IMG/VR virus record: IMGVR_UViG_3300027804_002057
Source of the DNA: a virus
Reading direction: 5' to 3' (one strand)
Length of the DNA stretch: 64,000 nt
The position numbers and the translations under genes are program-made. The notes beneath the pieces were generated by a model that did no database searches, had not been told where the DNA came from, and was given only the letters and a program-made list of their open reading frames with translations. The stretch's first letter is position 1. Each line of letters opens with the position of its first letter. Positions 191 to 49,328 of this stretch are shown in pieces.

Positions 191-267
191 TAAGGCACTG
201 AAAATCAACCAGTTATAACAGGTTGATAATCAATTAGTTATGTAAGTGGTTGAAAATTAATCAGTTA
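191..267. repeat. Three tandem 25-bp imperfect palindromes TAAnnnnnTGAnnATCAAnnAGTTA (putative operator array)
   Basis: Copies at 191-215, 216-240, 243-267; a fourth copy at 60533-60557. Confidence 0.7.
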
Positions 268-1006
268 TACGTGGGTCCGAATATCCCAATTTTTTGATTA
301 TATCTGATTCTGTAAGTATTTTACTAAGTTCTTTTGGTATATCAACTTCCCCATTCATATTTTGGAAAGGTTGATTGATTTGCCATGTTCTAATAACACC
401 CTGCCCATCATCATAGGTTGGAATTGAATTTATAGAATCATAATTTATTCCAGGTATATGTGTATAGGTTTTTGTTTTCGTTTTGAATATATCATCGGAA
501 AATTCAAGACCTAATTTAGTCATCATTTTTTTTATGATTTCACCATCATTATCAAAAAAATCTTCATATCTTATACAATACACATTTGGATAATTATTTT
601 CAACACCATCTAAAAATATTTTAGCTGCTTCTTCATATTCACCAAAACTCATATGATAATTAAATGTTGAATTAGGACCGTCTGTTGTTAGTGGATTATA
701 TCCTGCTTTAATTACAGAATTAAATACATTCCAAGGATTTCTTATAACAAATATTAAAATATAATCGCCATATTCTTTTTTAGCAGTGGTTATATATTTT
801 AATCCATTTGCTCTAATTTCAACCGGTATAACCGGTGATTTTGCCAAAACAAATTCTTTATCTCCAGATTGTAAAATATCCGTATTAGAAATACTGAAAT
901 ATTCTTTTGGCATTTCATACAAGTTTTTACATTCACCTAATTTAGCTTTTAAAATAGATGTACCGGTATGAGGAAATCCCGTAATTAAAATTTTCTTTTT
1001 ATTCAA
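257..1006 (-). CDS. Sulfotransferase family protein
   Basis: N-terminal PAPS-binding loop ITGFPHTGTS, VIRNPWNVFNS and IRYEDF motifs; TTG start. Confidence 0.75.
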   Translation of the reverse strand: MNKKKILITGFPHTGTSILKAKLGECKNLYEMPKEYFSISNTDILQSGDKEFVLAKSPVIPVEIRANGLKYITTAKKEYGDYILIFVIRNPWNVFNSVIKAGYNPLTTDGPNSTFNYHMSFGEYEEAAKIFLDGVENNYPNVYCIRYEDFFDNDGEIIKKMMTKLGLEFSDDIFKTKTKTYTHIPGINYDSINSIPTYDDGQGVIRTWQINQPFQNMNGEVDIPKELSKILTESDIIKKLGYSDPRITD

Positions 1007-1011
1007 AACAA

Positions 1012-1179
1012 TTATTTAAAATCTTCTGTATCTTCATCCCATTCATCTAAAGGAAATGATGATTCCATTTCTTCGTATAAAAATGTTAGTTCTTTTTGTG
1101 CATTCTCTACCATTTTCCAATCTTCAAATGAGATAGCATCTTCTAACATTTCAATAATGTCTTTAAGTTTGTTTTCCAT
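1012..1179 (-). CDS. Small acidic hypothetical protein
   Basis: ORF fills gap; start uncertain (1179, 1185 or 1203). Confidence 0.65.
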   Translation of the reverse strand: MENKLKDIIEMLEDAISFEDWKMVENAQKELTFLYEEMESSFPLDEWDEDTEDFK

Positions 1180-1223
1180 ATTCATAATGCTACGATTTTT
1201 CATTTAAATATAATGTTAATTAA

Positions 1224-2494: not shown

Positions 2495-3256
2495 TTAATC
2501 TAATTTATAAGGGTCATCACTAAATATTCTATCTATGTTAGATATACTAAAGTTTTTTTCAGGTACAAAGTTATCTTTAAATTCTATCTTAAAAAGATTT
2601 GCTTTTACTTTGTATGGTTTTAATAATTGTATATCTAAAATATTAAAATGTTTTTTCATCAATTCTCTACCATCAACTTTTTCAAAATCTTCTGATTCTT
2701 TTGCTTCTAAATATGATTTTGTTAATCTTTCTTCTGGTGCATGTGTGTGGATGTATCTTGTAAATACGCCATCAATCTTCCATTTAGAAACATTTAACCT
2801 ACCGTTATCCCAATTATATTTTGATTTTTCAAAAAGTAATTTCAAATTTTCAGTTGTACCAGCTATAATATGGTCACTCATGTGATATTCACAATATTGC
2901 CATGCTCTAAAGAAAACCGATGAACAATGTAACTTATCAGGTTCATTTATGATTGCATGGTAAATATTTTCTGGATATGACCAATATTCATCGCCTCTCA
3001 TTTTAATAACATACTTTGTTTTCACCAAATCTAATGCGTTCAAAGTTGATATTAATTGATAATTGATATTTTGGTCACCACTTTCCATCGGAAGCGGTGC
3101 CATTACTAATTTAAAATTTTTTGGAATATTTGAAAAATCAATAGAACATTCTGACCATGTTGAAATAACAACCGGGCAGTTTCTATATTTTGCTACATAA
3201 AAATCATAACAATCTTGTTCGATTCTTCCTTGAATAATAATTGTAGTATTCTCCAT
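2495..3256 (-). CDS. WavE-like polysaccharide synthesis protein
   Basis: TIIIQG, ISTW, NINYQLISTLNAL, TKYVIKMRGD, HMSDHIIAG motifs; start moved to 3256 to avoid overlap. Confidence 0.7.
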   Translation of the reverse strand: MENTTIIIQGRIEQDCYDFYVAKYRNCPVVISTWSECSIDFSNIPKNFKLVMAPLPMESGDQNINYQLISTLNALDLVKTKYVIKMRGDEYWSYPENIYHAIINEPDKLHCSSVFFRAWQYCEYHMSDHIIAGTTENLKLLFEKSKYNWDNGRLNVSKWKIDGVFTRYIHTHAPEERLTKSYLEAKESEDFEKVDGRELMKKHFNILDIQLLKPYKVKANLFKIEFKDNFVPEKNFSISNIDRIFSDDPYKLD

Positions 3257-3257
3257 A

Positions 3258-3671
3258 TTACTTTCTCCATCCAATCTTTTCTCCATTTTTTACTCTACGT
3301 TGCCATTCTTCTTCTGAACCTGGAAATCTCCAAGCCCATACTAACCAAAACAACATAAATAATCCTATTCCAATTAGAGCGAATGGTTTGTGTGAAAGTG
3401 TAAATAATAAAATAGTATAACTAATACTCATAGTTATAAGCATTATCCATTTAACCTTTGTTGGATAGATACTTTTTTCTTCCCATCTTATTAAGTGCGG
3501 TGAAAATGTTGGATGTGTGTGTAGCCAATGATTTAATGCTGGTGAGCTTTTAGCGAATGCCCAAGCTGCTAACACTACAAAAGTTGTCATCGGTATACCT
3601 GGCACAATAGCCCCGATGTAAGCACAACCTACAAAAAGTAAGCCAAGTGCTCTCCATAACCATTTATTCAT
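3258..3671 (-). CDS. ybaN: YbaN / DUF454 family inner-membrane protein
   Basis: IGAIVPGIPMTTFVVLAAWAFAKSSP..HWLHTHPTFSP signature, hydrophobic helices. Confidence 0.85.
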   Translation of the reverse strand: MNKWLWRALGLLFVGCAYIGAIVPGIPMTTFVVLAAWAFAKSSPALNHWLHTHPTFSPHLIRWEEKSIYPTKVKWIMLITMSISYTILLFTLSHKPFALIGIGLFMLFWLVWAWRFPGSEEEWQRRVKNGEKIGWRK

Positions 3672-3682
3672 AACTATATAGT

Positions 3683-3847
3683 TTAATCCCAATCTTCCGA
3701 AAAACTCTTTTTACCTCTTTGTGGTTTAGTGTCTTTCTTTTTTGGTTTATTAATTTTCTTTACTTTAACTTTATCTTTTATGTATAATTCTTCTTCATCA
3801 ATCTCATTATACACAAACTTTTTTAGATAAGCCTTTTCGTTTTTCAT
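3683..3847 (-). CDS. Small Lys-rich hypothetical protein (54 aa, absent from ORF track)
   Basis: Manual translation MKNEKAYLKKFVYNEIDEEELYIKDKVKVKKINKPKKKDTKPQRGKKSFSEDWD; fills gap between neighbours. Confidence 0.6.
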   Translation of the reverse strand: MKNEKAYLKKFVYNEIDEEELYIKDKVKVKKINKPKKKDTKPQRGKKSFSEDWD

Positions 3848-4017: not shown

Positions 4018-4809
4018 CTATTTAAGATGCTTTTTAAGTGTTCTTGCTCCCAATATCCATTTCTTTCCTATTGGGTTTTCAATTGGTTTTCTTAAAAATG
4101 CATCTACTTGCTTTTGTACTGATTTAGTAACTGGTTGATATTCCGTATTATCTACTATGATAAAATTGTTGTGGAATATTCCCTGAAACTTACCCATATT
4201 CTCTTGGCATTTTCTCCAAACGTCTTTTACCAATGATTCCGGTAGGCTTCTACTTCTTTCAGCATTTCTTTTTAGTGCAACTTCCAACGAAGTGTTTACG
4301 AATACCATATAACAATCATAACCAAGCTTTTCAGCTTTGTCTTTTTTGTTTTTGATTTTAAGAACTTCATCGCCTGTTCCATCGATTATCATTCCCAATC
4401 TCCCAGCTTCGTAAAATGCTTGTTGTTTTTGTGTAACGGCTTTAGCTTTGTTACGAATTGAATCACCTTCTTCTCCGGCTATATAAGCCCAGAAGTTAGG
4501 GTCATTCTTTTCTATATCCGCTAAATCTTTTGGATTAATACCATTCTTTTTAAGAGCTTGCTCAAACGCAGTATCCGAATTTAGAATCTTTAATCCACCT
4601 GCGGAAACGGATGCTATATCACCCTTACCTACGCCAAATATTTCATTTGCTACATAGGATTTGCCACTACCCGGTCCACCAGCCAAAAAGATACATTTAA
4701 GAATACCAGGATCATCAACTCCTTCGGTGATTATCTCAGCGAATAGTTTAGTTCTGACTTCCTTAATCTCTTTTTGGATAGTAGATAGTTCGGATATAAG
4801 ATTCTTCAT
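4018..4809 (-). CDS. Zeta-toxin-like / AAA_33 P-loop kinase
   Basis: Walker A GGPGSGKS, LNSD, IIDGTG, ALKRNAERSR lid motif. Confidence 0.75.
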   Translation of the reverse strand: MKNLISELSTIQKEIKEVRTKLFAEIITEGVDDPGILKCIFLAGGPGSGKSYVANEIFGVGKGDIASVSAGGLKILNSDTAFEQALKKNGINPKDLADIEKNDPNFWAYIAGEEGDSIRNKAKAVTQKQQAFYEAGRLGMIIDGTGDEVLKIKNKKDKAEKLGYDCYMVFVNTSLEVALKRNAERSRSLPESLVKDVWRKCQENMGKFQGIFHNNFIIVDNTEYQPVTKSVQKQVDAFLRKPIENPIGKKWILGARTLKKHLK

Positions 4810-4812: not shown

Positions 4813-5055
4813 TTACTTAGTCTTCTTAGCTGCTGGCTTCTTCTTTTCAACAACAACAGTTTTAGCAACTTTCTTAGCTTTATCAGCTACTTTCTTTACT
4901 TTAACTGCAACTTCCTTTACTTCTTCGATTTTTTCTTCGATAACGTCAGGAATGTTATTGTTGTTCTTATCTTCAATCTTGCCAGATTTCATACCAAAGT
5001 ATGCAAATACTCCGCCGATTGCAAGAACAGCCAAAATAATTAAAAATGTTCCCAT
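4813..5055 (-). CDS. Small membrane-anchored Lys-rich protein
   Basis: N-terminal TM helix, DKNNNNIPD motif, basic tail. Confidence 0.7.
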   Translation of the reverse strand: MGTFLIILAVLAIGGVFAYFGMKSGKIEDKNNNNIPDVIEEKIEEVKEVAVKVKKVADKAKKVAKTVVVEKKKPAAKKTK

Positions 5056-5645: not shown

Positions 5646-6209
5646 TTAATATTCATATTCTTTTCTAGGACCGGTAAGGTTTCCATTTATTAGGAAAGAA
5701 CAGTTAAAACATAGCATACGGAGATTATCGTATGAATGATTTTTACGATTTGCATCTATAAAATCCAAAACTAATGGAACTCTATGGTCTGTTACCCTTC
5801 TTTCTTCAAATCCACAATTTGAACACTTTTCTTCTACATATCCACTAAGAAGTAATCTCTTTTTTAATTTCCAAACTGGGTAATTGGGGTACTTACCTGC
5901 TAAAATATCATCAAGCGCATGATACCCATGTGTGGTTGTTGCTCCCTTACGAATTCCAATACCAGAAGGATTTTTTAATTCTTCAAAAATACCATATTCT
6001 CTAGCATATTTTTTGTATGTATTATATGATACTCCCAATAATTTAGCTGCTTCAGCTGCTGAACGTGCTTTCTTTTGAATATCCTTTATTTCAGATTCCA
6101 ATAAAGGTCTTGCTCCTAATCCTCTTTTAGTTCTCCTTTGTGGTGCTAATGATAGATTCTTTGTTGGGTCAAAGTTGGAAAACTCTTTAAATTCTTTTTC
6201 TTCTTCCAT
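5646..6209 (-). CDS. HTH plus degenerate HNH zinc-finger protein
   Basis: SAAEAAKLLGVSYNTYKKY HTH; CSNC...LVLDFIDANRKN..DNLRMLCFNCS with both His positions substituted. Confidence 0.7.
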   Translation of the reverse strand: MEEEKEFKEFSNFDPTKNLSLAPQRRTKRGLGARPLLESEIKDIQKKARSAAEAAKLLGVSYNTYKKYAREYGIFEELKNPSGIGIRKGATTTHGYHALDDILAGKYPNYPVWKLKKRLLLSGYVEEKCSNCGFEERRVTDHRVPLVLDFIDANRKNHSYDNLRMLCFNCSFLINGNLTGPRKEYEY

Positions 6210-6850: not shown

Positions 6851-7123
6851 TTATTTTATTTGATTATATCTTTCTTTATTTTGTTTATTTGACCATTCCA
6901 TTTCAACCGCTGTCCATTTACCTTTTGGACAAGCTCCTATTTTTGGTGAATATACTTTTGCTTTTAATGCACATCCACATTCTCCACAATGAATAATAGG
7001 TGATGTTCTTTTTGAATCACAACTATCACATATTTCCATTCTTTTTCCAGCTAATTCGGATTGTGCATCATTTGGATTAAATGCAATCCCCCACGCTTTA
7101 AATATTTCTACTACTTTATTCAT
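6851..7123 (-). CDS. Small six-cysteine domain protein (DUF6171-like)
   Basis: RMEICDSC...CGECGCALKAK...CPKGKW. Confidence 0.7.
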   Translation of the reverse strand: MNKVVEIFKAWGIAFNPNDAQSELAGKRMEICDSCDSKRTSPIIHCGECGCALKAKVYSPKIGACPKGKWTAVEMEWSNKQNKERYNQIK

Positions 7124-7590
7124 ATTTTATCATTTTCTCTTAAAAAATGAACCAACTTTGTAAATGATTGAACTGGATTGTCCGATGTTGTATCCATATC
7201 AAAGAAATTTATTTCTGGAATCTCATATCCCTCTACTTTAAATTGCTCTCTTTGTCTTTTACGATTTGTATGAACATATATTTCAACAATATTACCGCCA
7301 CATTCAGTTTTAAATTCTTCTCTTAATTCTCTATATGGTGATACTAAAGATACAACCACATCACATCCTTTTGCGTTTAAGAAAAAAGAAAGTAATTGTG
7401 CGTTTTTTATATTTTGAATCCTACCTGCTTCTGAATAATCTTTGTTGAGTGTGAGTTCTCTCAAATCATCCCCGTCAATATGAAATACATCCTTTCTCCA
7501 ATTTCTTTTTTCCGTTTGGAGAAGGTCTTTAAGTTTTGTAGCTTGAATAGTTTTACCTGCTCCAGGTTGGCCAGTGAACCAATATATCAT
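7120..7590 (-). CDS. cysC: Adenylylsulfate (APS) kinase
   Basis: WFTGQPGAGKT, IDGDDLR, DYSEAGRIQN, VSLVSPYRELR motifs. Confidence 0.88.
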   Translation of the reverse strand: MIYWFTGQPGAGKTIQATKLKDLLQTEKRNWRKDVFHIDGDDLRELTLNKDYSEAGRIQNIKNAQLLSFFLNAKGCDVVVSLVSPYRELREEFKTECGGNIVEIYVHTNRKRQREQFKVEGYEIPEINFFDMDTTSDNPVQSFTKLVHFLRENDKI

Positions 7591-7613: not shown

Positions 7614-9200
7614 TTAATTTATAAATTTTTTAGCGTATCTTTCAAAATACTGAATGTTTATTTTATCCATATTATTGTTAAACCAATTATAGTATTTTTC
7701 ATATACTTTATTTATTTCTTCATCGGATAATTTTTCCAAAGGTCTTTTAGCAAAATCTACCGATTGATTTTTGTGTTGTTCAAAATTATCAGGCGAATTT
7801 ATATTACCACTTTGTTTATGACCTGCAACTTCTGCTGGGTCACTCCAATTAAAACAATACGATGGTACATAATTTTTATTATGTTCATCTAATTGCGCTT
7901 CATCTCTTAATTTTGTGTACCAACTCAATCCTTCATATCCAGTAATATCTGAACGGAATCCTATTTCTCTGATTCTATTCATCTTTATAATAACACTTGC
8001 TTCTAATGTATTCATAACAAGCATAGTATTACTTTGAGTTGAAAAGAAACTCATTTCAGGTTTCCAAGCATCTCTACGATTTTCTCTAATACCATCAACT
8101 GCCTGTTCTAAATGCCAAGGTAAATAAATGTCATCATCATCTGCCAACATAAAGTAATCTCCAGTTGCATGAGTTACAGCATCTCTACATATCTGTCCTC
8201 TATTTTCATAAGGCTCTCCGGTTTGATAATCCTTTGAATTATTTACGATTATAATAGAAGGGTCATCAAATCCTAAAGTGTATGGATGTTCTTCATCCGT
8301 ATTGAAGATAACTAATTCTTTATTTTCATATGTTTGTGCATGATATTGAGCTACTATTCTTTCTACACAAGTAAATCTACCATAGGTTGTACATACAAAA
8401 CTAACCTTACCATCTTTTAGATATTCTTTATATTTTTGAATACCATCATATATGTTTACATTAGGTTGCCATCCACCCATAAATTTATCAGGAGAACTAT
8501 ATGTATTAAATTGATAACCCGTTGGTATATCACTTTCTTCTAAATAGGAGTATGGAATACCCAATGTATCAAATATAGTTTCAAATTCAACACTTTGTCC
8601 TGTTGCTACTTCGTACCATTTTCCTTTTAAAGAATCATAATAATCTAATGCATAAAAATTGGCACGAACTACATCATCTATGTAAACAAAATCTCTTTTT
8701 GGTTTGCCTGGAAATAACTTAACTTCATCTTTATTTATATTCTGATAAATCATAGATGCCATATTACCCTTATGTTCTTCACCAGGTCCATATACATTAA
8801 AATATCTTAATGCAATTCCACCTTTAGCTACAACATAATCTTCACCTAATAACTTACTCCAACCATATAAATTAGAAGGTTTATTATAATCAACACCATA
8901 AACAGCTGCAGATGATGAATAAACTAATTTTTTATTATTCAACACACACCAATCCATCAACCATTTAGTTGAAAGATAATTTCTTTCTAACATAAAATCA
9001 ACATCGGTATTCAATGTATCCGAGCAAGCACCTACATGAAGTATTGCATCTGGATTTATATTATCCAAAAATCTTTCTAAGTATTCTTTTGGATTTGGTT
9101 CGTTAAAATATTCGACATCCAATTTAATATAATGATGTCCTAATTTATTCAATATATTTTTACCAATAAATCCTTTGTATCCCGTAACTAATACTACCAT
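7614..9200 (-). CDS. Fusion: ADP-heptose 6-epimerase-like SDR (HldD/RfaD-like) plus GT2 glycosyltransferase
   Basis: TGYKGFIG, HVGACSDT, YSSSAAVYG, YGWSK, LRYFNVYGPGEEHKGNMAS, then VSFVCTTYGR and ADDDDIYLP GT-A motifs. Confidence 0.8.
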   Translation of the reverse strand: MVVLVTGYKGFIGKNILNKLGHHYIKLDVEYFNEPNPKEYLERFLDNINPDAILHVGACSDTLNTDVDFMLERNYLSTKWLMDWCVLNNKKLVYSSSAAVYGVDYNKPSNLYGWSKLLGEDYVVAKGGIALRYFNVYGPGEEHKGNMASMIYQNINKDEVKLFPGKPKRDFVYIDDVVRANFYALDYYDSLKGKWYEVATGQSVEFETIFDTLGIPYSYLEESDIPTGYQFNTYSSPDKFMGGWQPNVNIYDGIQKYKEYLKDGKVSFVCTTYGRFTCVERIVAQYHAQTYENKELVIFNTDEEHPYTLGFDDPSIIIVNNSKDYQTGEPYENRGQICRDAVTHATGDYFMLADDDDIYLPWHLEQAVDGIRENRRDAWKPEMSFFSTQSNTMLVMNTLEASVIIKMNRIREIGFRSDITGYEGLSWYTKLRDEAQLDEHNKNYVPSYCFNWSDPAEVAGHKQSGNINSPDNFEQHKNQSVDFAKRPLEKLSDEEINKVYEKYYNWFNNNMDKINIQYFERYAKKFIN

Positions 9201-9995: not shown

Positions 9996-10679
9996 TTAAT
10001 CAATTAATCCTTTTGCAAATTTTTCTTTATTGGTATGTTCCCAACTATATAACGCATGATGTTTTAAAACTTCATTTTGAAAAGTGTTATAATCACCATA
10101 TTCTATATTATGTTTATCCAAATGTCCTCTTACTACACTATGGTAATGCCAAATTTCATTACTAAATTCGTTTTCCAATCCCAAATATCTTTTAGCTTCA
10201 ATTCCTGTCCATCCTGGCGAATATGGTGCGTTGCAATAACCATATTCAATTGGCATACTATCAATCATATGTTTAACCATTGGATGTTCTTTTTGAAAAG
10301 CAAATACGTTATTTGTTAATGTATAATCACAATGTTGCCAACCAACTCCCCAATGTCCAAAAACAATACCATCTCTATTTTCTAAGTTAAGAGAATCCAA
10401 GCTTTGTTTGAATTCCCAATCAATATCTAAGTACCAACCACCATGCTCATAAACAACTAACCATCGTATCATATCTGCACAAAATACATAATCTTTTCTT
10501 TCGTACATCGTATCATACATTTGTTGTAATCTTTCTGGTATTTGTGGTAAATTATCATCGGTCCACAAATTGTATTTGTAATCGGGATGTTTATCTCTAA
10601 TTTCTTCCGATATTCTTTTTTCTCTACTTGGTATAGGGTACTTACCAACCCAAACCTGATTTATAACTTTATCTATCAT
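9996..10679 (-). CDS. GT32 (OCH1-like, DxD) glycosyltransferase
   Basis: IDKVINQVWVG, HPDYKYNLWTD, ADMIRWLVVYEHGGWYLDID. Confidence 0.85.
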   Translation of the reverse strand: MIDKVINQVWVGKYPIPSREKRISEEIRDKHPDYKYNLWTDDNLPQIPERLQQMYDTMYERKDYVFCADMIRWLVVYEHGGWYLDIDWEFKQSLDSLNLENRDGIVFGHWGVGWQHCDYTLTNNVFAFQKEHPMVKHMIDSMPIEYGYCNAPYSPGWTGIEAKRYLGLENEFSNEIWHYHSVVRGHLDKHNIEYGDYNTFQNEVLKHHALYSWEHTNKEKFAKGLID

Positions 10680-11263
10680 AGCTTTGTTATTTCAAAAATT
10701 AAATCATCATATCTACCTTTTACATCTCTACTATCAAATATTTTTGTAGATACGTTAAAATTATTATCTTTTATTAGTTTTTCAAACTTTTCAAATCTAT
10801 CATATTCCTGCACATCTTCTATAATAATTTTACCACCCGGTTTTATTTTAGGTAACCAATATTGAATACAATACATTTGCGATTCAAATGTATGTGGGCC
10901 ATCATCTATCAAATAATCAATAGAATTATCTTCAAATAAATCAACAGTGCTTTGTTGATAAGCATCTTGGAAAATACTTGTTGCTCCCTTAATTTCAAAT
11001 GGTTTTTTATGATTGTAATGATATGGATATTTTTCTATTGCTGTGATTTCTGCTTTACGAAGCCACTCTCTCCACAATACCATAGAATATCCATCACCAA
11101 TCCCAATCTCAACCAAATTTATTTCCGCATCTCTATTTGTAAATTCATTGGTATAATAAGAATTTATGTAATCATGTGTTGTACCTTTATCGGTAATATT
11201 AAACCCACTATATTTTTGAGTATAATAATTCCAAAATTCACTAAGTGTTTTTAAATCTTCCAT
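10676..11263 (-). CDS. Class I SAM-dependent methyltransferase (sugar O-methyltransferase-like)
   Basis: TDKGTTHDY, LVEIGI, IDDGPH, KPGGKIIIEDV. Confidence 0.85.
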   Translation of the reverse strand: MEDLKTLSEFWNYYTQKYSGFNITDKGTTHDYINSYYTNEFTNRDAEINLVEIGIGDGYSMVLWREWLRKAEITAIEKYPYHYNHKKPFEIKGATSIFQDAYQQSTVDLFEDNSIDYLIDDGPHTFESQMYCIQYWLPKIKPGGKIIIEDVQEYDRFEKFEKLIKDNNFNVSTKIFDSRDVKGRYDDLIFEITKL

Positions 11264-11850
11264 TATTTTTCTTTAAATTTAATTAATTGAGAACCTCTAA
11301 ATGTAGGTATATAAAGTGCCCACTCAATTCTATGTGAATAATCTCTCATAAATTGAGATACGGAATTTCTTACGTCTGTGTGATAATCATAGTCATCCAA
11401 AATAACGTAACGTGAATTTTCCATTGCCATTTTTAAATCGTGAATTTTACAATTATAATCGTGACAACCATCAATTGATACTAAATCAAAAAATTGTGGA
11501 AGTTCGGTTTGTTCTTGTGAATCTAAATGTTGAATTTCCCATTTACAATTTCCGTTATAGTATTCACCTATATTGTTTCTTGCTATTTCGTTATTACCAT
11601 AAGTTTCCAAATCCCAACCCAATGCATATTCTAAATTTTCAGAACCTAACATTGTTGGTAAAAATGAAAAACCAAAACGTACACCTATTTCCATAAATGT
11701 TTTTGGTTTGATTGTTTTTGCTATGGCATAGTACCATTCAAAGCAGTTACCACTCCATACATAATCGTAAGAGTCATACTTAGTAAAAAATTCAGATGGT
11801 ATTACATCGTGAATTGATTCGGGTTTGTTTTTAAATAATTCTTCTATCAT
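11263..11850 (-). CDS. Methyltransf_24 family methyltransferase
   Basis: MEIGVRFGFS, DLVSIDGCHDY, ILDDY; start at 11850 (ATGA overlap). Confidence 0.85.
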   Translation of the reverse strand: MIEELFKNKPESIHDVIPSEFFTKYDSYDYVWSGNCFEWYYAIAKTIKPKTFMEIGVRFGFSFLPTMLGSENLEYALGWDLETYGNNEIARNNIGEYYNGNCKWEIQHLDSQEQTELPQFFDLVSIDGCHDYNCKIHDLKMAMENSRYVILDDYDYHTDVRNSVSQFMRDYSHRIEWALYIPTFRGSQLIKFKEK

Positions 11851-22971: not shown

Positions 22972-23244
22972 CTACTCCCCAGAAAATCCTCTTTTCTTTT
23001 TCTTAGTACTCAACGCAGATGTGGGTAGAGTTCCTTCGGCTATCTTATCTAATATAACCTCTCTTTGATTTTTACGAATAGCCTTTTGTTTTTGTTCCCT
23101 TTTTTCGGTTGTGGGTTTTGTATATTCTTTTCGGTCTCTCAATTCCATAATGTGACCGGATTTGATTACCTTTCTTTTGAATTCTTTTAGAGCCTTATTT
23201 ATGTCCTGCTTTGTACAGTCCACTATAACGATTGATACTCCCAT
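22972..23244 (-). CDS. rpsU: Ribosomal protein bS21
   Basis: DINKALKEFKRKVIKSGHIMELRDRKEYTKPTTEKR matches bS21 pattern. Confidence 0.85.
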   Translation of the reverse strand: MGVSIVIVDCTKQDINKALKEFKRKVIKSGHIMELRDRKEYTKPTTEKREQKQKAIRKNQREVILDKIAEGTLPTSALSTKKKKRGFSGE

Positions 23245-37509: not shown

Positions 37510-37514
37510 AGTTT

Positions 37515-37733
37515 TTAATTTTCTTCTTCGTTTATTATTTCTATGCAAAGGATATTTTTATCATTAACCATTACCAATCTACCATCTTTTGTTTCAAATT
37601 TAGTAAACTGACCTTGCTTAATTGAATGCGTATCCACCTCATTAAAAGTACGTTTCTCTCCACCAACAAAATGTAGGATTTGAGAAACATATCTTCCTTT
37701 TTTTATTATAGAACTTTTTAAATTAGTTTTCAT
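37515..37733 (-). CDS. Hypothetical protein
   Basis: ORF with TAATG coupling. Confidence 0.65.
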   Translation of the reverse strand: MKTNLKSSIIKKGRYVSQILHFVGGEKRTFNEVDTHSIKQGQFTKFETKDGRLVMVNDKNILCIEIINEEEN

Positions 37734-39430
37734 TACTTTTCAATAACAATATTATTCATAACCAAATAATCAATACCAGATTTATAAAAACAATCAATAG
37801 CATCTGATGGCGATTCTACCAATGGCATTCCATTAATATTAAATGATGTATTTAATACAATTGCATATCCAGAAAGTTTTTCAAATTCGGAAATTAATTT
37901 ATGGTATTTTGGATTTGTTTTTTTAGAAACAGATTGTATTCTTCCAGTACCGTCAAAATGAACAACACCAGGAAGTTTATCTTTATATTCATCTTTAAAC
38001 ATAAACACCTTTTCCATAAAATAAGAATGCTGACCTTTTGGTATGTGGAAATATATGTTTTCTTTTTCTTCTAATACAGAAGGTGCAAATGGTCTAAACC
38101 CTTCTCTATATTTTATAGATGAATTTACTTTATCTTTAACATCATCAAATGTTGGGTCAGCTAAAATACTTCTATTACCCAATGCTCTTTGTCCAAATTC
38201 ACTTTTACCTTGAAACCATGCAATAATATTTTTTTCTCTTAATTTTTTAGCTGCAAATACTTCTACATCATCAACAATTGTAAATTTAATTTTTCTCTTT
38301 TTAAGTTCTGAAATTATATCGTTATCAGAAAACTCAAATCCATAATAGTTATGTTGTAATTTTGGTAAAATTGTTTTTTGGTTTTTATCAAATACCAATC
38401 CATATAAAGCAGAACCTATTGAAATTCCACTGTCATCAGGACTTCCGCCTATATGTATATTTTCATATTGTGTTTTTTCTAAAATCTTTCCGTTTAAAAC
38501 AGAATTCATAAAAAATCCACCAGCCACAATAATATTTTTAGATTGTGTTTTTGATTGTATATTATTTAATATTTCAATACTAACATCTTCTGCAACCTTT
38601 TGTACAGCAGCTACTAAGTCATAATGATATTCAGTAAGTTCTTCTAATTTACTTATAGGATTTCCAAACTCTTTTATAAATTTTGGAGAAAAGTAATTCT
38701 GAGTAAAAAACATATAGTGTTCAAAATAACTTAAATCCAATTCAAAATTCAAATCATCAAGTTTAATTAAATTCCTTACCTTATCATAATATTTGTTTGG
38801 GTTTCCTAAAGATGCCAATGCCATAACTTTCCACTCATCTCCGTTTGGATGGAATCCCAAAAATTCAGTAAATGTTGAATAAAAACTACCAAGAGAATGT
38901 GGTGTTCTCAAATTTGATATAGCTTCTATTTTAGAATAATCAATTGTTCCAATCAACCCAGTTGTATTTTCACCAAAGCCATCTGCTACAAAATAATCTG
39001 AACTTTCAAACCCAGAAGTAAAAAATGAATTTGAAAGATGTGCATGGTGGTGGTTTACAAAATGAACTTTTATGTTTGAATTTATTGTTTTAATTTCCTG
39101 TTCTATTTGTAACGAGTTATACTCAGACATTGATGCTAATTCGTTAAGAGCTAGATATGCCATCTTACCTCTATCTTTTAATGCATCACTTATAGTATTA
39201 TCTGAACGATACATATATGTTGCAGGATTCCAACCAACATATACATCTGTTATATCTTCAAAAGATACTCCTGCTATTTTGCAACAATATTTTATAGATT
39301 GTTTAGGAAAGTTTTTATCTCTCTTTAATCTACTTAATCTTTCTTCTGTAATTGCTGCTTTAATTTCTCCATCAATAATCAAGCATGCCGAAGAATGAAA
39401 TCCACTTATATTAATTCCTAATATTACCAT
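37733..39430 (-). CDS. O-carbamoyltransferase (NodU/CmcH/TobZ family)
   Basis: EERLSRLK, HHHAH, ADGFGE, EWKVMALAS, EFGQRALGNRSILADP, FRPFAP, LNTSFN. Confidence 0.92.
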   Translation of the reverse strand: MVILGINISGFHSSACLIIDGEIKAAITEERLSRLKRDKNFPKQSIKYCCKIAGVSFEDITDVYVGWNPATYMYRSDNTISDALKDRGKMAYLALNELASMSEYNSLQIEQEIKTINSNIKVHFVNHHHAHLSNSFFTSGFESSDYFVADGFGENTTGLIGTIDYSKIEAISNLRTPHSLGSFYSTFTEFLGFHPNGDEWKVMALASLGNPNKYYDKVRNLIKLDDLNFELDLSYFEHYMFFTQNYFSPKFIKEFGNPISKLEELTEYHYDLVAAVQKVAEDVSIEILNNIQSKTQSKNIIVAGGFFMNSVLNGKILEKTQYENIHIGGSPDDSGISIGSALYGLVFDKNQKTILPKLQHNYYGFEFSDNDIISELKKRKIKFTIVDDVEVFAAKKLREKNIIAWFQGKSEFGQRALGNRSILADPTFDDVKDKVNSSIKYREGFRPFAPSVLEEKENIYFHIPKGQHSYFMEKVFMFKDEYKDKLPGVVHFDGTGRIQSVSKKTNPKYHKLISEFEKLSGYAIVLNTSFNINGMPLVESPSDAIDCFYKSGIDYLVMNNIVIEK

Positions 39431-40197
39431 ATACAAATTTTTTGAATGTCCTGTCCACCTCTATATCCCCAAAATGCCTGAAGGTATCCTCTATGCGTTG
39501 GCATGTTCATCATCGGAGTAAGACACGTTCCAATATCAATATAGGAATTATCGGGAAAATCTCTGAATAATTCATATACTGCCAAATTGGTGAATGTAGA
39601 AGCTGAGAATAAGAACACATGATTTTTGATGTTGTTCTCTCTAATCCATTGTTTAATTTCTTCAATTTTATCATAATCATTTATAAATGCGTTATAACCC
39701 ACTCTAAAGTCTTTTACAACAAATGGGAGTTTAGATATATCTGCATCTTTATGTCCAACAAATACACAATCTTTACTATAAAGAATTGGAAGTGTATGTG
39801 TCACAAATAAAGGATAATTGCCATTAACCCAAAGATTTGCCCATGTCAAGCTATCATCATCCCCACCATGCAAATCTAATTGAAATTTAAATGCATCATC
39901 ACCAACACAACATTTACAACTAATACCTTTATAGTAATTTGATTGTTTATGTTGATATGCTTCGATTAATTTATTTCTAAATTCTATGTGTTCCAATGGA
40001 TTATAATGTTTAAAATCTGGCGCTTGATATACACCAGGACTTTTTGTTTCACCAACTTGAATTACATCTGCACTTAATTTTAATTCTTTATTTTCTAAAA
40101 TTGATAGTTCACCATCAGAATAGCGAGCAAAACCAAAATGTTTGTTATTTCTAATCATTTCGGTAAATTTAATAAAATCTTGTCTAAAGTTCTTCAT
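39424..40197 (-). CDS. GT-D fold (DUF1792-like) glycosyltransferase
   Basis: FARYSDGE and YIDIGT motifs. Confidence 0.65.
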   Translation of the reverse strand: MKNFRQDFIKFTEMIRNNKHFGFARYSDGELSILENKELKLSADVIQVGETKSPGVYQAPDFKHYNPLEHIEFRNKLIEAYQHKQSNYYKGISCKCCVGDDAFKFQLDLHGGDDDSLTWANLWVNGNYPLFVTHTLPILYSKDCVFVGHKDADISKLPFVVKDFRVGYNAFINDYDKIEEIKQWIRENNIKNHVFLFSASTFTNLAVYELFRDFPDNSYIDIGTCLTPMMNMPTHRGYLQAFWGYRGGQDIQKICIW

Positions 40198-43714: not shown

Positions 43715-46096
43715 TTAGTAAGTTTGAACAGTTACCCAAGTTGAACCATTGTGGAACATTAAATATGCATTACCTGTTGAACCAGATGCGTATAACATAC
43801 CACCTTGCCCAGTTGGTGGATATTGATTAGGAATAAGATGAATTCCAGAATACAAATCAACAGAACCACTAACCGTTAATATTTTTTGAGTTGGTTCAAA
43901 TCTTAAATCAGCTTCAACATATCCACCTGATGTTGCGTTATGATATGTAATAAGCCCATTATCAGTTGTACCATTTAGTACTAGCAATCCGTTTGTACCA
44001 CTAACTCCAGAAGTTCCAGATGTACCACTTGTACCACCACCACCAGTTAATCCAGATGTACCACTACTTCCCGAAGTTCCAGATGACCCGTTTTCACCAG
44101 CCACACCATTACTACCACTTGTACCAGATGTACCATTAGTACCAACGCCGTTTAATCCAGAAGTACCAGAACTACCCGATGAACCATTTGAACCTTCTAA
44201 TCCGCTTGTTCCCGAAGTCCCAGATGAACCTGATGTTCCGGCTCCACCAACAACTCCAGAAGTTCCAGAAGAACCGCTTGTACCGGATGAACCATCATTA
44301 CCAACACCATTAACACCAGAAGTACCACTTGTACCAGAAGTACCACCACCACCAGCAGCTCCGGTATTTTCTACTCTCACACTACCACCACCCAAATCAG
44401 AAATTGAAAAAGCAGAACCACTAAATGCAATAGTTGTTACATTTTGTAAATTAAATGCACCAAATGATGCACCACTATAATTTCTTACAGATAAAGATGC
44501 TCCAAAAGAAGATGTTGGTACTAATCTAGTAATGTTACCAGCACCACCAACCCATGTATATCCACTTGCCAATGATGCGGAGAATGAGCCAGATAATTGA
44601 ACATCGTTTCCTGTACCATATGTATTTGATGTTCCGATTTGAGCAAATATACCACTACCAAATGATGAAGTTGCTACTAATGCAGTCACACCACCAGCAC
44701 CACCAACCCAAGCATATCCACTTGCTAATGAAGCGGTTAATGTACTTGATGCAGAAACACGACCAGTTACTGTCAATAAACTACCATCAAATAATAAGTT
44801 AGTATTTACCGTTGAGTTTGGTACATTAAATGTAACTACTCCATTTAAAGTAAATCCATTTAAAGTTAATGCACCAGCCGTTAAAGAAGATGTTGTAACT
44901 AATCTTGAAACATTACCAGGTCCACCAACCCACATATAACCATTTGCTAAAGATGCGGATAAAGAACCTGTAATTTGTATATCATTTGTTGTTGCGTAGA
45001 ATGAACCAGTTTGTACAAAAATACCACTACCACCACCAGCTCCAAATCCCAATGCGGTAATTTGAGCTGCTCCAGATATAATTGCTGAATTTTTAAGAGA
45101 TGCCGTGTATGCTTCTAATCCATTTATTTCTGCTCTAATAGAACCTGTAAATGTATTTAATGATGCAGTTGTTTGCCATACTCTTGCTAAAGATGCAGTT
45201 GTAATATTAAGAGATGCAGTTGTTTGTTGTAATCTTTGAATCGTTGCATCAGTTGAACCAGTATATGTGTTTAAAGATGCAGTTGTTTGTTGTAATCTTT
45301 GAATTCTTGCATCAGTTGAACCAGTATATGTGTTTAAAGAAGCCGTTGCTTGTTGTAACGTAGCTATTTGAGTTGCAGTTGAACCAGTAAATGCGTTAAG
45401 TAAACTTATATCAGTAACAGAAGTACCAGATGTACCACCACTACCAGCAGTTCCGTTTGTACCAGAAACGCCAGATGTACCGCTTGTACCAGACGTTCCA
45501 GATGAACCACCACTACCAGCAGTAGAATTTGTTCCAGATATTCCAGAAGTACCAGAAGTACCAGATGAACCACCACTACCAGCAGTACCTGTTGTACCAG
45601 ATGTACCCGCTTGCCCAGTTGCTCCAGCTGTATTAATATACCAAGAAGAAATTCCGGTAGTACTACCAACGATAGAAGTTACATTAACAACAAACGAACC
45701 ATTACCACTATTGTAAGATACAACAGTTGCATTTAATACATTATTAGAATCATAAGATATGATTGTTTGTTGGCCAGGTGTCCATTTTAACCCAGTACCT
45801 ATTGTAAAAGTCTTTGAACCTAAAGATACATCATGCGTATCATTTGATGTGGATGCATAACGGTCACCATCTGAACCAGACGTACCCGATGTACCAGATG
45901 TACCACCACTACCAGCAGTACCGGTAGAACCGGTTGCACCTGATGTTCCTGAAGTTCCTGATGTACCAGCCGTACCACCACTACCAGCCGTTCCTGATGT
46001 ACCTGCTAAAATTTGGGCTTGTAAATAATCCAAATTGTCATCCATCTCCTGTGCGCTTAGCGGAGACCCCTTTGATAAACGTTTAACTAATGCCAT
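43715..46096 (-). CDS. Fibre-like probable virion protein with Gly-Thr-Ser triplet repeats
   Basis: KRLSKGSPLSAQEMDDNL N-terminal motif; three (G-T/S-S)n tracts; three SASLAxGYxWVGG repeats. Confidence 0.8.
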   Translation of the reverse strand: MALVKRLSKGSPLSAQEMDDNLDYLQAQILAGTSGTAGSGGTAGTSGTSGTSGATGSTGTAGSGGTSGTSGTSGSDGDRYASTSNDTHDVSLGSKTFTIGTGLKWTPGQQTIISYDSNNVLNATVVSYNSGNGSFVVNVTSIVGSTTGISSWYINTAGATGQAGTSGTTGTAGSGGSSGTSGTSGISGTNSTAGSGGSSGTSGTSGTSGVSGTNGTAGSGGTSGTSVTDISLLNAFTGSTATQIATLQQATASLNTYTGSTDARIQRLQQTTASLNTYTGSTDATIQRLQQTTASLNITTASLARVWQTTASLNTFTGSIRAEINGLEAYTASLKNSAIISGAAQITALGFGAGGGSGIFVQTGSFYATTNDIQITGSLSASLANGYMWVGGPGNVSRLVTTSSLTAGALTLNGFTLNGVVTFNVPNSTVNTNLLFDGSLLTVTGRVSASSTLTASLASGYAWVGGAGGVTALVATSSFGSGIFAQIGTSNTYGTGNDVQLSGSFSASLASGYTWVGGAGNITRLVPTSSFGASLSVRNYSGASFGAFNLQNVTTIAFSGSAFSISDLGGGSVRVENTGAAGGGGTSGTSGTSGVNGVGNDGSSGTSGSSGTSGVVGGAGTSGSSGTSGTSGLEGSNGSSGSSGTSGLNGVGTNGTSGTSGSNGVAGENGSSGTSGSSGTSGLTGGGGTSGTSGTSGVSGTNGLLVLNGTTDNGLITYHNATSGGYVEADLRFEPTQKILTVSGSVDLYSGIHLIPNQYPPTGQGGMLYASGSTGNAYLMFHNGSTWVTVQTY
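45212..45340 (-). repeat. 63-nt tandem duplication (SLNTYTGSTDAxIQRLQQTTA x2)
   Basis: Near-identical direct repeat. Confidence 0.88.
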
Positions 46097-46170
46097 TTTA
46101 TATTATGTTGCGTATTTTGAGATTTATACACAAGTAAATATAATTAAAAGGTAAAAGAAGAAGATTGTAC

Positions 46171-46641
46171 CTATTTAATATATTGAGTTAATACTTCTTT
46201 TTTGAACTTTACCAATTCAATGTTTTTTATGTTTTTGGTAATATAAGTTCTGTAAGTAGGTATATTTTGATTATATATCCTACTTTGGGCCACAAATTGA
46301 TTGAATATTTTACGTCCATCTTTGTTATCAAGAATTAAAATATCTTCCAATCTTTCGGATTCAGTTATTAAATTTTCAGTAATAGCGGGTTTATAAAGTT
46401 TTTTTAACCACCTAAAAAACTCCTTTGGCTTAACTAAACTAATTTTTAAAGCAGATATAACTTTTGTTGGAGATATTCCTATAACAAAAATGTAAGATGT
46501 TTCCACACCTGCTAAACTCTTTGTTTTACCATCTTTGTAAGTATAACTATTAATTTTGTATATGTTTCTAGGTCTTATCAAATTTTTAGAAACACTTTCT
46601 TCATACTCAATTAATGGTATATACTCTTTTGAAAATGGCAT
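46171..46641 (-). CDS. Basic hypothetical protein
   Basis: ORF between GT4 and fibre genes. Confidence 0.65.
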   Translation of the reverse strand: MPFSKEYIPLIEYEESVSKNLIRPRNIYKINSYTYKDGKTKSLAGVETSYIFVIGISPTKVISALKISLVKPKEFFRWLKKLYKPAITENLITESERLEDILILDNKDGRKIFNQFVAQSRIYNQNIPTYRTYITKNIKNIELVKFKKEVLTQYIK

Positions 46642-46642
46642 T

Positions 46643-47935
46643 TTATAGTTTATTTAATTTTGGTATTTGAATCTTAGCTTTGTTAAGCTGCGGAACATTA
46701 AATGGAACAACTTTAGGAGTTGCTTTTACATAAGTATCCATAATTTCAGTAAATCTATCATGCATTTTTTCTAATGTAAAATTTTTCAAAGTATTTTCTT
46801 TTAATCCCTGTGATTTAGAAAGGTAAGTATCATACTTTTTATAAACATCATACATTTTATTAGCTGCAGAACTATAATTTACAGTAAACCATTGTGCTTC
46901 TTTCATAATGAATTGGTCAGCTGCGGATTCATCTACTGCTGTCAAACTACCTTCCAATAAAACTGCATGTTCTGCTGGTAGAAAATCTATTTGCCCACTC
47001 CATCCACTTGCTATAAGTGGTTTACCTGTCAAAGTAAACTCAGCCATTGGTCTACCATATCCCTCACCTTTAGCAAATGAAATCATTGCTTTAACTTTTG
47101 GATGATGGTATAAATTACTCATATCACTTTCTTCCATATCACCATGTATCAAATATACAGATGGAGATTTATCACCAAATGATTTTAATACTTCATCAAT
47201 CTTTCTACGAGTTTCCTCTCTATCAATTACACTAAATCCAGCATGAGATGTTTTTAATAAAAGAGCAGGTTGTTTATCTTTTGGTAGGTATTGAAACACT
47301 GTTGCAAATGTTTTAATTACCATTCCAATATCTTTTCTATCTTGTCCCAATGAACCTTTCAACCAATGTCCAACAGTTAGGAAACAAAAATCTTCTTTTA
47401 CGTTTTCCAAAACATCTTTACCATTTCCATTAGAAAATATTTCAGTATCAACACCTTCAAATAGAACTTCGATTGGTCTTTGTATTTTAAACTCACCTAC
47501 AATCTGCCCAGTTGTTTGGTCCTTTTGTTGATATACAGTTCCGCCTAAATTTTGTTTTGTAAAATTAGATGGTACTAAAATCAAATCCATTTTGTTAGAA
47601 CCATCAATAAAATCTTTAGGTGCAATTGTAGTTTCAACTCCAGCAGTAATACCAATGTTATAATTTCCTTTTGGTTCGAATTCATTTGCTACTGAAATTT
47701 GCATGAATACGTCAGGCTTTTCTCCAATCTCTCCAATAACTCTTTCTAACATCCAACGGCCAAATTCATCTTGGTCACTAACTTGGTTTTGTGGTGTGTT
47801 ACCCCAACGAAGTGGAATAATTTTTATATCGTACTTATCCATTTTACGAAGTGATTTCATCAAATCTCTACAATGGTCACCATAACCACTTCTAGTAAAA
47901 ATAGGTCCTTGAAATACTAATGTTGGTTTGCTCAT
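46643..47935 (-). CDS. GT4-like glycosyltransferase
   Basis: RSGYGDH, RKDI, KGEGYGRPMAE (EX7E), SGWSGQIDF. Confidence 0.85.
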   Translation of the reverse strand: MSKPTLVFQGPIFTRSGYGDHCRDLMKSLRKMDKYDIKIIPLRWGNTPQNQVSDQDEFGRWMLERVIGEIGEKPDVFMQISVANEFEPKGNYNIGITAGVETTIAPKDFIDGSNKMDLILVPSNFTKQNLGGTVYQQKDQTTGQIVGEFKIQRPIEVLFEGVDTEIFSNGNGKDVLENVKEDFCFLTVGHWLKGSLGQDRKDIGMVIKTFATVFQYLPKDKQPALLLKTSHAGFSVIDREETRRKIDEVLKSFGDKSPSVYLIHGDMEESDMSNLYHHPKVKAMISFAKGEGYGRPMAEFTLTGKPLIASGWSGQIDFLPAEHAVLLEGSLTAVDESAADQFIMKEAQWFTVNYSSAANKMYDVYKKYDTYLSKSQGLKENTLKNFTLEKMHDRFTEIMDTYVKATPKVVPFNVPQLNKAKIQIPKLNKL

Positions 47936-47945
47936 ATACTATAAC

Positions 47946-49328
47946 TTATTTAACTTTAAATACCTCAAATCTTTGGCGAGGTTTCCAATTTTCAAATGTA
48001 GATTCAATTCCATCCACTAATGTTTGACACATATTTGTATGTGATAAACCAGCTTCATTAATAAAGAATTCTCTACCAATTAAAGCATTTGCTTTTCTTT
48101 CTTCTTTAGGTGTGTTGTACATTTTTTCGATTGCATCCGCAACATCATGTAAATCAACTCTATCATCCCAAATATAAGGAGTTGGAACTGAACCTGCTAA
48201 TGCCAATGCTCTACTCCAAACAGGAATAGCCCAAGAACCAGGTTTTGCTTTTTCTTCCCACTTTCTCCACTCATGCAGAGAACCAATTTTTATATAATCA
48301 TCCGCAACTAATACATTACCCTCAACTTTAAATCCACATTGGTCTTGCAATCCGCCTGTTACGTTTACGATGATTGGAGTTCCTGCCATTACCGATTCTG
48401 CAGTTGCTAATCCAAATCCTTCGTTGTTAGCGATGTTAATTGTTGCATCTACCATATTGTAGATAAGATTTAACTCTTGTTGAGGTCTTCTCTTTTCAGA
48501 AAATTTAATATTAACATCAGGTGCAATTGCTTCAATAACTGCCGGTAAATCCGTACCATTATCATCCACAGGTTGAGTGTGCATTAATAACAAACACTTA
48601 TCTGCTTTTTCTTTACCAATTCTATCACAAAATAATTTATATGCATAGATTACATCAGATGGTTGCTTTCTTCTAATATTGCGATTTGACCAATAAAGAA
48701 TGAAATCATATTTTTTATCACCAACAACATCTTTGTAAAACTCATCAGATACATCAGCTGGTTTGTATATATCAGTATTAATACCATGTGGTACATAACT
48801 TACTTGCCAATCTGCTTTTGGTTTCCAAGTTGGTTTATCAACTCTAGCACCAATTCTTTTAATAATACCATAAGTTTGGCGAGAGATACAACCAATCCAA
48901 TCACAACTTTCATAGAAGTTACGATTATACATTGGGTCTGGCAAATCATCCCAAATTGCGTAGAATAAAAGAGGAACATTTTGTCTGATTTCATGCTCTA
49001 TATCATACAACCATGTCCAATAGCGAGGGTCAGTAAAGTGTAGGATAGCATCAGGTCTTTCTGAATTAATCAGCTGACGTATTAAATCAGCGTTACCATA
49101 TCCATTCCAAGGTAAAATTTTTACATTTGCATCTTGTATTCCATAGTTTTGTCTGATGTCTTCACTAACATCTAAAATCTTTCCAGCTTCTGGATGGTTG
49201 ATTGCAGCTCCTACTTGAAACCAATCGTATTTATGTACTGTCCCTAATACTAATTCTTTGGACATTGTAGCGATACCACTCGCCATTCTTAAATCATCTG
49301 AAAGTAACAATATTTTTTTCTTTGCCAT
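47946..49328 (-). CDS. GT4-like glycosyltransferase
   Basis: LSDDLRMASG, VPHGIN, NRNIRRKQ, NEGFGLATAE (EX7E), TGGLQDQ. Confidence 0.88.
   Translation of the reverse strand: MAKKKILLLSDDLRMASGIATMSKELVLGTVHKYDWFQVGAAINHPEAGKILDVSEDIRQNYGIQDANVKILPWNGYGNADLIRQLINSERPDAILHFTDPRYWTWLYDIEHEIRQNVPLLFYAIWDDLPDPMYNRNFYESCDWIGCISRQTYGIIKRIGARVDKPTWKPKADWQVSYVPHGINTDIYKPADVSDEFYKDVVGDKKYDFILYWSNRNIRRKQPSDVIYAYKLFCDRIGKEKADKCLLLMHTQPVDDNGTDLPAVIEAIAPDVNIKFSEKRRPQQELNLIYNMVDATINIANNEGFGLATAESVMAGTPIIVNVTGGLQDQCGFKVEGNVLVADDYIKIGSLHEWRKWEEKAKPGSWAIPVWSRALALAGSVPTPYIWDDRVDLHDVADAIEKMYNTPKEERKANALIGREFFINEAGLSHTNMCQTLVDGIESTFENWKPRQRFEVFKVK

Follow-up and report, generated by a model that had tools for sequence, protein, structure and literature searches.

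For about two decades, aquatic T4-like phages have been known to carry large clusters of glycan genes, and to our knowledge no target has been shown for any of them so far. The cluster of S-SCSM2R comprises 22 genes, including 13 glycosyltransferases (GTs), GT11, GT2, epimerases, and mom, and similar clusters occur in P-SSM2 and S-SCSM1 (PMC12801897). Here we analyzed an island spanning positions 257-49328 of the IMG/VR virus record IMGVR_UViG_3300027804_002057. All coordinates refer to the window, the whole 64,000-nt stretch of this DNA. The island has much in common with the lipopolysaccharide (LPS) or "cell-wall synthesis and modification" clusters of cyanomyoviruses, including a T4-like genome, tens of soluble GTs (GT2, GT11, and GT1/4), nucleoside diphosphate (NDP)-sugar epimerases, a nearby mom gene, no exporter, and a function that is putative in both (PMC12801897). 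It differs from them in being larger (~30 genes), in adding an APS kinase, a putative sulfotransferase, and a carbamoyltransferase, in being interleaved with fiber genes, and in containing a poly-Thr gene paired with a GT8-like gene.

Giant viruses (PBCV-1 capsid glycans, Mimivirus fibrils) encode both nucleotide-sugar synthesis and GTs, with which virion proteins receive complex, methylated glycans in the cytoplasm. In Gram-positive cocci, hydroxyl-rich serine-rich-repeat adhesins are encoded beside dedicated cytoplasmic GTs (GtfA/B, and GT8 enzymes including GlyE). In the Bacillus exosporium, BclA is a glycosylated, proline-poor G-X-Thr collagen-like filament of the spore surface, and its gene lies near sugar-synthesis and GT genes. 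Among phages, two to four GTs modify the C-terminal tails of mycobacteriophage capsid and tail-tube subunits, as shown experimentally (Freeman et al. 2023, summarized in PMC12619734). As summarized there, these GTs are encoded beside structural genes, have presumed Ser/Thr-rich acceptors, and act in the cytoplasm without export machinery; in the window, too, GTs lie beside structural genes. The candidate acceptors here are instead separate multi-module proteins and fibers, and the predicted pathway is far larger than the one summarized. Phage glycan clusters and virion glycosylation are known kinds of system. What is new here is the size and chemistry of the island, its embedded fiber genes, and the recurrent GT8-like/poly-Thr pair.

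The window derives from an uncultured freshwater T4-like myovirus with relatives of 160-274 kb. Those compared were G001 (160 kb; PolB 96% identical), G003 (207 kb; complete, CheckV 100%), G004 (253 kb), and G005 (274 kb). The best overall explanation, in which we place about even confidence, is that the island downstream of the replication genes consists of two layers. The first is a conserved core of ~20 soluble enzymes that travels with a repeat fiber and a proline-poor collagen-like Gly-Ser/Thr fiber. It comprises nucleotide-sugar enzymes of the Fcl/6-deoxyhexose, heptose-kinase/nucleotidyltransferase, and UDP-ManNAc types along with GT2, GT4, GT-B, and GT11 enzymes and methyltransferases. 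The second is a variable cassette that contains, in gene order, a subtilase, three poly-Thr/Ser strings of Fn3-like modules, a GT8-clan enzyme, methyltransferases, a GT32, an epimerase-GT2 fusion, and an APS kinase. We lean towards this cassette being a protein O-glycosylation unit that acts on the linkers of the Fn3 strings.

The evidence that carries this reading is a gene pair. The GT8-clan enzyme, a GT-A glycosyltransferase with an ~80-aa Cys-rich N-terminal domain (11847-13031, minus strand; phrog_4417), comes directly after the three poly-Thr genes. We scanned IMG/VR with an alignment of its family, which yielded 441 confirmed loci. Eighty of these were fetched, and 73 included upstream sequence. 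Open reading frames (ORFs) with at least 28 Ser/Thr in 40 residues were scored as strict poly-Thr/Ser, and those with 20-27 as a weaker class. A Ser/Thr-rich ORF preceded the GT8-like gene in 57 of the 73 loci. A strict ORF lay immediately upstream on the same strand in 40, usually with a gap of 12-100 bp, while the immediate upstream ORF was of the weaker class in 16 and a poly-Thr ORF was second upstream in one. By comparison, the background count was zero (0 of 842 ORFs of at least 150 aa in PolB-centered loci; 0 of 258 in G001 and G003). This difference argues for dedicated protein O-glycosylation of Thr/Ser linkers, and such an arrangement is what one would expect if the enzyme were encoded beside its own substrate. 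The association persisted when the enzymes were collapsed to 21 clusters at 75% identity: 12 were strict, three weaker, one mixed, and five had no such neighbor. Most of the loci shared no other gene with the window, and their flanking ORFs were 1000-2000 aa long. In G005 the poly-Thr/GT8 pair adjoins ORFs of 2479 and 1048 aa and lies 120 kb from the core island, which speaks against the single joint cluster proposed in an earlier note on this DNA.

The poly-Thr genes of the window encode three modular proteins of 215, 549, and 741 aa (13079-13726, 13761-15410, and 15440-17665), in which small Cys-bearing beta-sandwich modules alternate with linkers of the TTTSTSTS...TTAAP type carrying up to 37 Ser/Thr in 40 residues. 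None had a Pfam or PHROG match. All 27 database homologues of the N-terminus of the 15440 protein carry Thr/Ser tracts, which vary in length and position. Its N-terminal 175 residues were modeled as two beta-sandwiches (predicted local distance difference test, pLDDT, 84), and residues 82-175 are Fn3-like (Z 9.4; root-mean-square deviation, rmsd, 2.9 over 81 residues). As the matches were to generic Fn3/Ig-like folds only, they do not prove a virion role. The three proteins belong to a set of six Ser/Thr-rich ORFs, completed by 17707-19620, 19881-22907, and 43715-46096. The six had been described as mucin-like proteins without signal peptides. They are real, and none has a hydrophobic N-terminus, but they are not of one kind. 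With 29-37 Ser/Thr per 40 residues, 13079, 13761, 15440, and the 17707 linker deserve the mucin-like label, which does not suit 19881 or 43715; true poly-Thr/Ser "beads on a string" are limited to 13079, 13761, and 15440. The 17707-19620 protein is an S8 subtilase (PF00082, E 2e-37; phrog_9158), likewise without a signal peptide, in which a Thr/Ser linker (residues 505-562) leads to a small C-terminal domain. Its catalytic part is kept beside the fiber gene in 75 IMG/VR loci (L082-L156; 37-70% identity), marine ones included, while the linker and C-terminal domain occur in the closest relatives only.

The AlphaFold2 model of the GT8-clan enzyme (pLDDT 91.6) adopts the GT-A fold typical of the retaining GT8/GT24 clan, and the family has an invariant H183-D184-x-D186 (HDxD) motif, so that both the fold and the DxD motif of this clan are present. 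VIA comparison of the model gave glycogenin (Z 13.8; rmsd 3.7 over 227 aligned residues), a GT8 protein (13.7), LgtC, WbbM, and the Skp1 galactosyltransferase AgtA (each 13.5), UGGT (13.0), and GlyE (12.8), and Foldseek recovered UGGT, LgtC, and glycogenin at E ~1e-6. PBCV-1 A64R and Mimivirus R699 were also among the fold matches (Z ~10). The giant viruses infect eukaryotic hosts, and their proteins have no sequence relationship to the window enzyme beyond the GT-A fold. The GlyE match recalls the serine-rich-repeat adhesins, where a hydroxyl-rich protein is likewise encoded beside GTs. Unlike in those systems, neither a GtfA/GtfB-type initiator nor an accessory Sec system was recognized in the window, G001, or G003, and Thr predominates in the linkers, which connect Fn3-like modules. 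We regard 11847-13031 as a candidate initiating protein O-glycosyltransferase.

The earlier note had labeled a GT of the island as GT95/96-like. The plant and algal enzymes HPAT (GT95) and SGT1 (GT96) are also GT-A proteins with a DxD motif, and they act directly on hydroxyl-rich repetitive peptides. The phage enzyme has no membrane anchor, however, and neither it nor any of 70 family representatives matched the HPAT model PF23452, and the label was not upheld. A lead to HPAT from the ESM-atlas was weak (PF23452 in 10% of the members of one distant cluster), and a link by sequence was rejected, as the profile search with the GT8-like family listed nothing beyond its near members, each at E<1e-67. 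The family itself is large (1,469 clusters at 50% identity, E<=1e-3), and its members often occur in fusion with another GT (GT2, GT7C, GT6, GT32, GT29, GT25, or GT61) or with a methyltransferase. The Cys-rich domain of the window enzyme (11847-12090) also recurs as a free-standing 90-aa ORF on the minus strand (6851-7123), and free-standing copies are present in G001, G002, G003, and G005.

The core behaves differently from the cassette. Synteny with G001 and G003 delimited it to 23.2-43.5 kb and 46.1-49.3 kb of the window, at 60-95% amino acid identity; the core genes starting at 32941, 36239, and 37733 are window-specific relative to both. Neither G001 nor G003 encodes an ORF with at least 28 Ser/Thr in 40 residues or a full-length homologue of the GT8-clan enzyme. 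Parts of the core are also retained, with poly-Thr proteins lacking, in about 20 further subtilase-centered loci, and among the subtilase loci the GT8-like enzyme is present in exactly the four with clade-type poly-Thr tracts. Since the ~20-gene core is kept where the poly-Thr proteins are absent, these proteins are not its obligate target, and the earlier proposal that the whole factory was built for them is not supported. As to whether related phages keep the cluster without Thr/Ser-rich proteins, a check proposed at that time, they do so for the mucin-like proteins but not for Ser/Thr-rich fibers. G001 and G003 each retain the repeat fiber and the proline-poor collagen-like Gly-Ser/Thr fiber inside the island, and collagen-like ORFs of up to 4590 aa were found in all five relatives examined, including the Microcystis phage Mel-JY01. 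The acceptor of the core layer is about equally likely to be these virion fibers (collagen-like or repeat) or host envelope glycans.

Both fiber genes of the window are flanked by GT genes. The repeat fiber (19881-22907; 1008 aa) contains an 11-aa Ser-rich repeat (33 bp x 18.6 copies) and repeats of a YTASLK motif. Its C-terminus matches phrog_17970, and homologues occupy the same place in G001, G003, and L082-L101. The collagen-like fiber (43715-46096; 793 aa) matches PF01391 (E 8.8e-18; 4 matched stretches) and PHROG tail-fiber families. It has the repeats of a collagen triple helix, with G-X-Y runs of 7-17 Gly-Thr/Ser-Ser/Thr triplets and only 9 Pro. Its likeness to BclA lies in the repeats only, with no homology outside them, and glycosylation of the phage fiber is hypothetical. 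Giant collagen-like ORFs of 2242-4590 aa, mostly Gly-Ser/Thr triplets, were found in G003 (174472-193256), G004 (~135-144 kb), and G005 (~193-200 kb).

Transmembrane (TM) helices in the window were predicted only in a DUF454 protein (3258-3692) and an 80-aa ORF (4813-5055). The window therefore encodes no Wzx, Wzy, ABC exporter, or polyprenyl-phosphate initiating transferase, and this TM survey confirms what the earlier note had claimed. That is, the initiating transferase, flippase or ABC transporter, and polymerase of a Wzx/Wzy- or ABC-dependent surface polysaccharide locus are lacking, while many soluble GTs and NDP-sugar epimerases are present without an exporter. The search for export genes beyond the window had the same outcome: the multi-TM ORFs of G001 (160 kb) and the complete G003 (207 kb) included no exporter or initiating transferase and were either TerC or unassigned. 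The TerC-family membrane protein of G001 lies at 92997-93647 (L172:12997-13647; PF03741, E 5e-49).

Taken together, these data suggest a sequence of events in the infected cell. We infer the acceptor, the identity of the sugars, and a virion location from the gene content, synteny, GT fold, gene pair, and missing export genes described above. The GT8-like enzyme would add the first sugar to Thr or Ser of the linkers in the infected cytoplasm. Neighboring transferases would then extend the glycan, which would be methylated and possibly sulfated or carbamoylated, and the products would exit at lysis as glycosylated fiber-associated or adhesin-like proteins. The earlier idea that glycans are built directly on phage proteins thus stands in part. 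It agrees with the recurrent GT8/poly-Thr pair and the missing export parts, but not with a core that is independent of the poly-Thr proteins.

Several observations weigh against this reading. No match to any Pfam family, GT8 included, was found for 11847-13031 (E<=0.1) or for the GT8-like domain in 70 representatives (E<=0.01), and 16 of the 73 loci have no Ser/Thr-rich neighbor. Single-linkage clustering joined 80 of the 109 Ser/Thr-rich ORFs via common modules. As most poly-Thr proteins thus have at least one common module, part of the association reflects common descent of a cassette. What points to virion membership of the poly-Thr proteins is only their position beside fiber genes and weak, generic Fn3-like folds, and Thr/Ser linkers can function unglycosylated. 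Lastly, the core resembles the cyanomyovirus clusters that are usually ascribed to host-surface change (PMC12801897).

That last resemblance leads to the strongest alternative, which we consider possible though clearly less probable than glycosylation by the cassette, namely that the whole island is a host-surface remodeling set. Its soluble GTs might just as well modify lipid-linked intermediates of the host and make use of its exporters, as proposed for T4-like cyanophages, where the similar clusters of S-SCSM2R, P-SSM2, and S-SCSM1 have been read in this way (PMC12801897). The targets would be undecaprenyl-linked intermediates of O-antigen, exopolysaccharide, or capsule, handed on by host flippases or exporters. 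The resulting change in the cell surface could, for example, exclude superinfection or reduce the loss of progeny on debris, and the Ser/Thr-rich proteins would be ordinary fibers and adhesins that share the variable region by chance. Families typical of LPS and O-antigen synthesis are indeed present (WavE, WecB, GT11, HldE/HldD-like, and Fcl-like), and the persistence of the core without poly-Thr proteins is as expected. Such remodeling leaves unexplained why GT8-like and Ser/Thr-rich genes are adjacent in 57 of 73 loci of unrelated context. Moreover, the complete relative G003 encodes no initiating transferase, flippase, or ligase, and in all relatives the island has fiber genes embedded in it.

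At the opposite extreme, the whole island might form one export-free O-glycan pathway, combining sugars of the fucose, heptose, and ManNAc types with methyl, sulfate, and carbamoyl groups and acting on both the poly-Thr proteins and the collagen-like fibers to give the particle a glycocalyx, with the GT8-clan family as a widespread phage peptide O-glycosyltransferase. We judge this full version unlikely.

It is still less probable that the poly-Thr/Ser tracts are flexible, protease-resistant linkers that remain unglycosylated, with the GT8-like enzyme acting on some other acceptor, for instance a fiber, a small molecule, or a component of the host, and with the two genes adjacent through inheritance of one mobile fiber cassette. 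The modules common to most of the Ser/Thr-rich ORFs and the 16 loci without such a neighbor fit this explanation. It does not account for the persistence of adjacency, strand, and 12-100 bp gaps while the surroundings change, nor for the fact that the poly-Thr proteins adjoining the enzyme include at least three groups without BLAST links to one another, and the fusions to second GTs suggest stepwise building of a glycan. Finally, glycosylation of hydroxymethyl-pyrimidines in phage DNA by some of the GTs, as in T-even phages, is very improbable. In its favor, the lineage is T4-like, relatives encode a ThyA-family enzyme (E ~1e-95), two Mom-like DNA-modification genes adjoin the island, and diverse phage GTs are known to glycosylate DNA (cited in PMC12619734). 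Against it, the score of the ThyA match is that expected of a normal thymidylate synthase, the window contains no identified hydroxymethylase, and fucose, heptose, and ManNAc pathways with five methyltransferases and a carbamoyl- and a sulfotransferase fit a complex glycan rather than a mono- or disaccharide on DNA.

The chemistry available to the island was assessed from Pfam, NCBIfam, PHROG, fold, and ESM-atlas evidence, which supported ~30 glycan genes within 257-49328. All substantial ORFs of the window, and hence every feature listed here, are on the minus strand. The family and fold evidence slightly reduces the earlier count of about 34, as well as that of at least 13 GTs, 12 of which were supported: a WavE-like enzyme, four GT2 domains (one epimerase-fused), a GT32, a GT11, a GT4, a PHROG GT, two GT-B-like proteins, and the GT8-clan enzyme. 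Family matches recovered the five methyltransferases, carbamoyltransferase, and APS kinase reported before, as well as WecB, two Fcl-like enzymes, HldD-like and HldE-kinase-like proteins, and a short form of DegT. The labels GT-D and GME-like could not be verified because six ORFs (1224, 2036, 9194, 24626, 28880, and 39424) gave nothing usable in Pfam, PHROG, or PDB-sequence searches. A match was found for the claimed sulfotransferase (257-1006), but it is weak (PF00685, 23.5 bits against a cut-off of 22; PF13469, 25.8 bits), and the gene is window-specific, with no homologue in G001 or G003.

The genes outside the core include one for a WavE-like LPS-type GT (2495-3286; PF07507, 30.7 bits). 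The APS kinase (7120-7590; PF01583, E 9e-16), which makes PAPS, sits at the edge of the variable cassette and is conserved, with homologues in G001, G003, L083, L084, and L101. Next to it, an HldD-like epimerase (residues 1-262) is fused to a GT2 domain (residues 265-528) in a single protein (7614-9200; PF01370 and PF00535). This protein scored 162 bits against TIGR02197, below the cut-off, and its GT2 half co-occurs in 16 of the 80 GT8-like loci. A GT32 recognized by family match (9996-10679) and two Methyltransf_24 enzymes (10676-11263 and 11263-11901) are window-specific accessory genes that both G001 and G003 lack. Next to the DUF454 membrane protein, 4018-4809 encodes a P-loop kinase that is conserved in relatives and has AAA_33 and Zeta-toxin-like matches. 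Zeta toxins phosphorylate UDP-GlcNAc, and the protein could therefore be a sugar-nucleotide kinase.

Within the core block (23246-43565) are, by start position, a GT2 (25522), a fusion of a beta-PGM-like HAD with a nucleotidyltransferase (26748), an HldE-kinase-like PfkB (28109), two short-chain dehydrogenases/reductases (29286 and 30217), two FkbM methyltransferases (31197 and 36239), two Fcl-like enzymes (31982 and 33503), a Methyltransf_24 (32941), a weakly matched GT-B (34444), a GT11 (35379), a WecB scoring above the NCBIfam cut-off (40184), two further GT2 (41184 and 42936), and a group-1-like GT-B (41948), together with an HAD-like protein and the carbamoyltransferase (37733-39436). The DegT-like protein (36877-37548) has 223 aa instead of the usual ~370. 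Because similarly short forms (210 and 208 aa; 90-95% identical) are kept in G001 and G003, this is no recent truncation. Beyond the collagen-like fiber, the phrog_2170 GT (start 46643) and the GT4 (start 47946) fill 46643-49328 and abut the replication module; their counterparts in G001 and G003 share 80-92% identity with them. In the cultured phage Mel-JY01, a smaller GT block likewise follows the replication genes at this position, but the GT8-like/poly-Thr pair is absent.

The T4-like replication module that bounds the island (49615-63797) encodes a PD-(D/E)XK-type exonuclease, clamp loader, sliding clamp, PolB, two Mom-like proteins, and ribonucleotide reductase (RNR); with PolB, clamp loader, clamp, and RNR, the window has a T4-like backbone. 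PolB belongs to phrog_262 (E 9e-185). It is 52.5% identical to that of Mel-JY01, the nearest isolate, compared with ~33% for T4-like cyanomyoviruses, and many relatives whose PolB is 77-100% identical are found in IMG/VR. A megablast search with 24 kb of the island against phage records returned no match. The Mom-like genes (60562-61362 and 61648-62421; phrog_1384, E ~1e-47 each) are paralogous, adjoin the replication genes, and are kept in G001 and G003. Between the mom paralogues and the gene adjacent to PolB, a 563-aa ORF with an endonuclease-VII-like C-terminus (58675-60366) has been inserted. It has no counterpart in G001 or G003 and might represent a mobile nuclease; an HNH gene is located at 5646-6209. 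The GC content of the window is ~31%, and it contains no tRNA genes. The late-promoter motif TATAAATA was found at 8 sites (16.7 expected), whose placement was uninformative, and a scan for sigma-70 promoters and terminators gave chance-level results. The "Moraphage" lineage (PMC12619734) was considered and set aside, as it is non-T4 and different from this phage.

The proposal that the host belongs to the Bacteroidota found no support. The nearest isolate infects Microcystis, and the sole hint of Bacteroidota was a 1.1-kb fragment binned in a Flavobacteriaceae metagenome-assembled genome. The island also contains one non-glycan gene, for ribosomal protein bS21 (22972-23244; PF01165, E 6e-12), with an 89% identical copy in G001 and none in G003. 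Host assignment through this gene was abandoned, as all 190 database homologues are phage-clade sequences, and a profile search of genome contigs with the S21 alignment found no relative.

By tying a glycan cluster physically to fiber genes and to an enzyme/poly-Thr pair, this island yields a specific, testable prediction about the target of such clusters. If the core remodels the host surface instead, the older question of their target would be settled for this clade. If protein glycosylation is correct, a function could be assigned to a large family of phage proteins that now lacks annotation, and there would be a new class of soluble peptide glycosyltransferases, with glycans possibly sulfated or carbamoylated without membrane machinery. 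O-glycosylation of particles or released adhesins would then be common among environmental phages.

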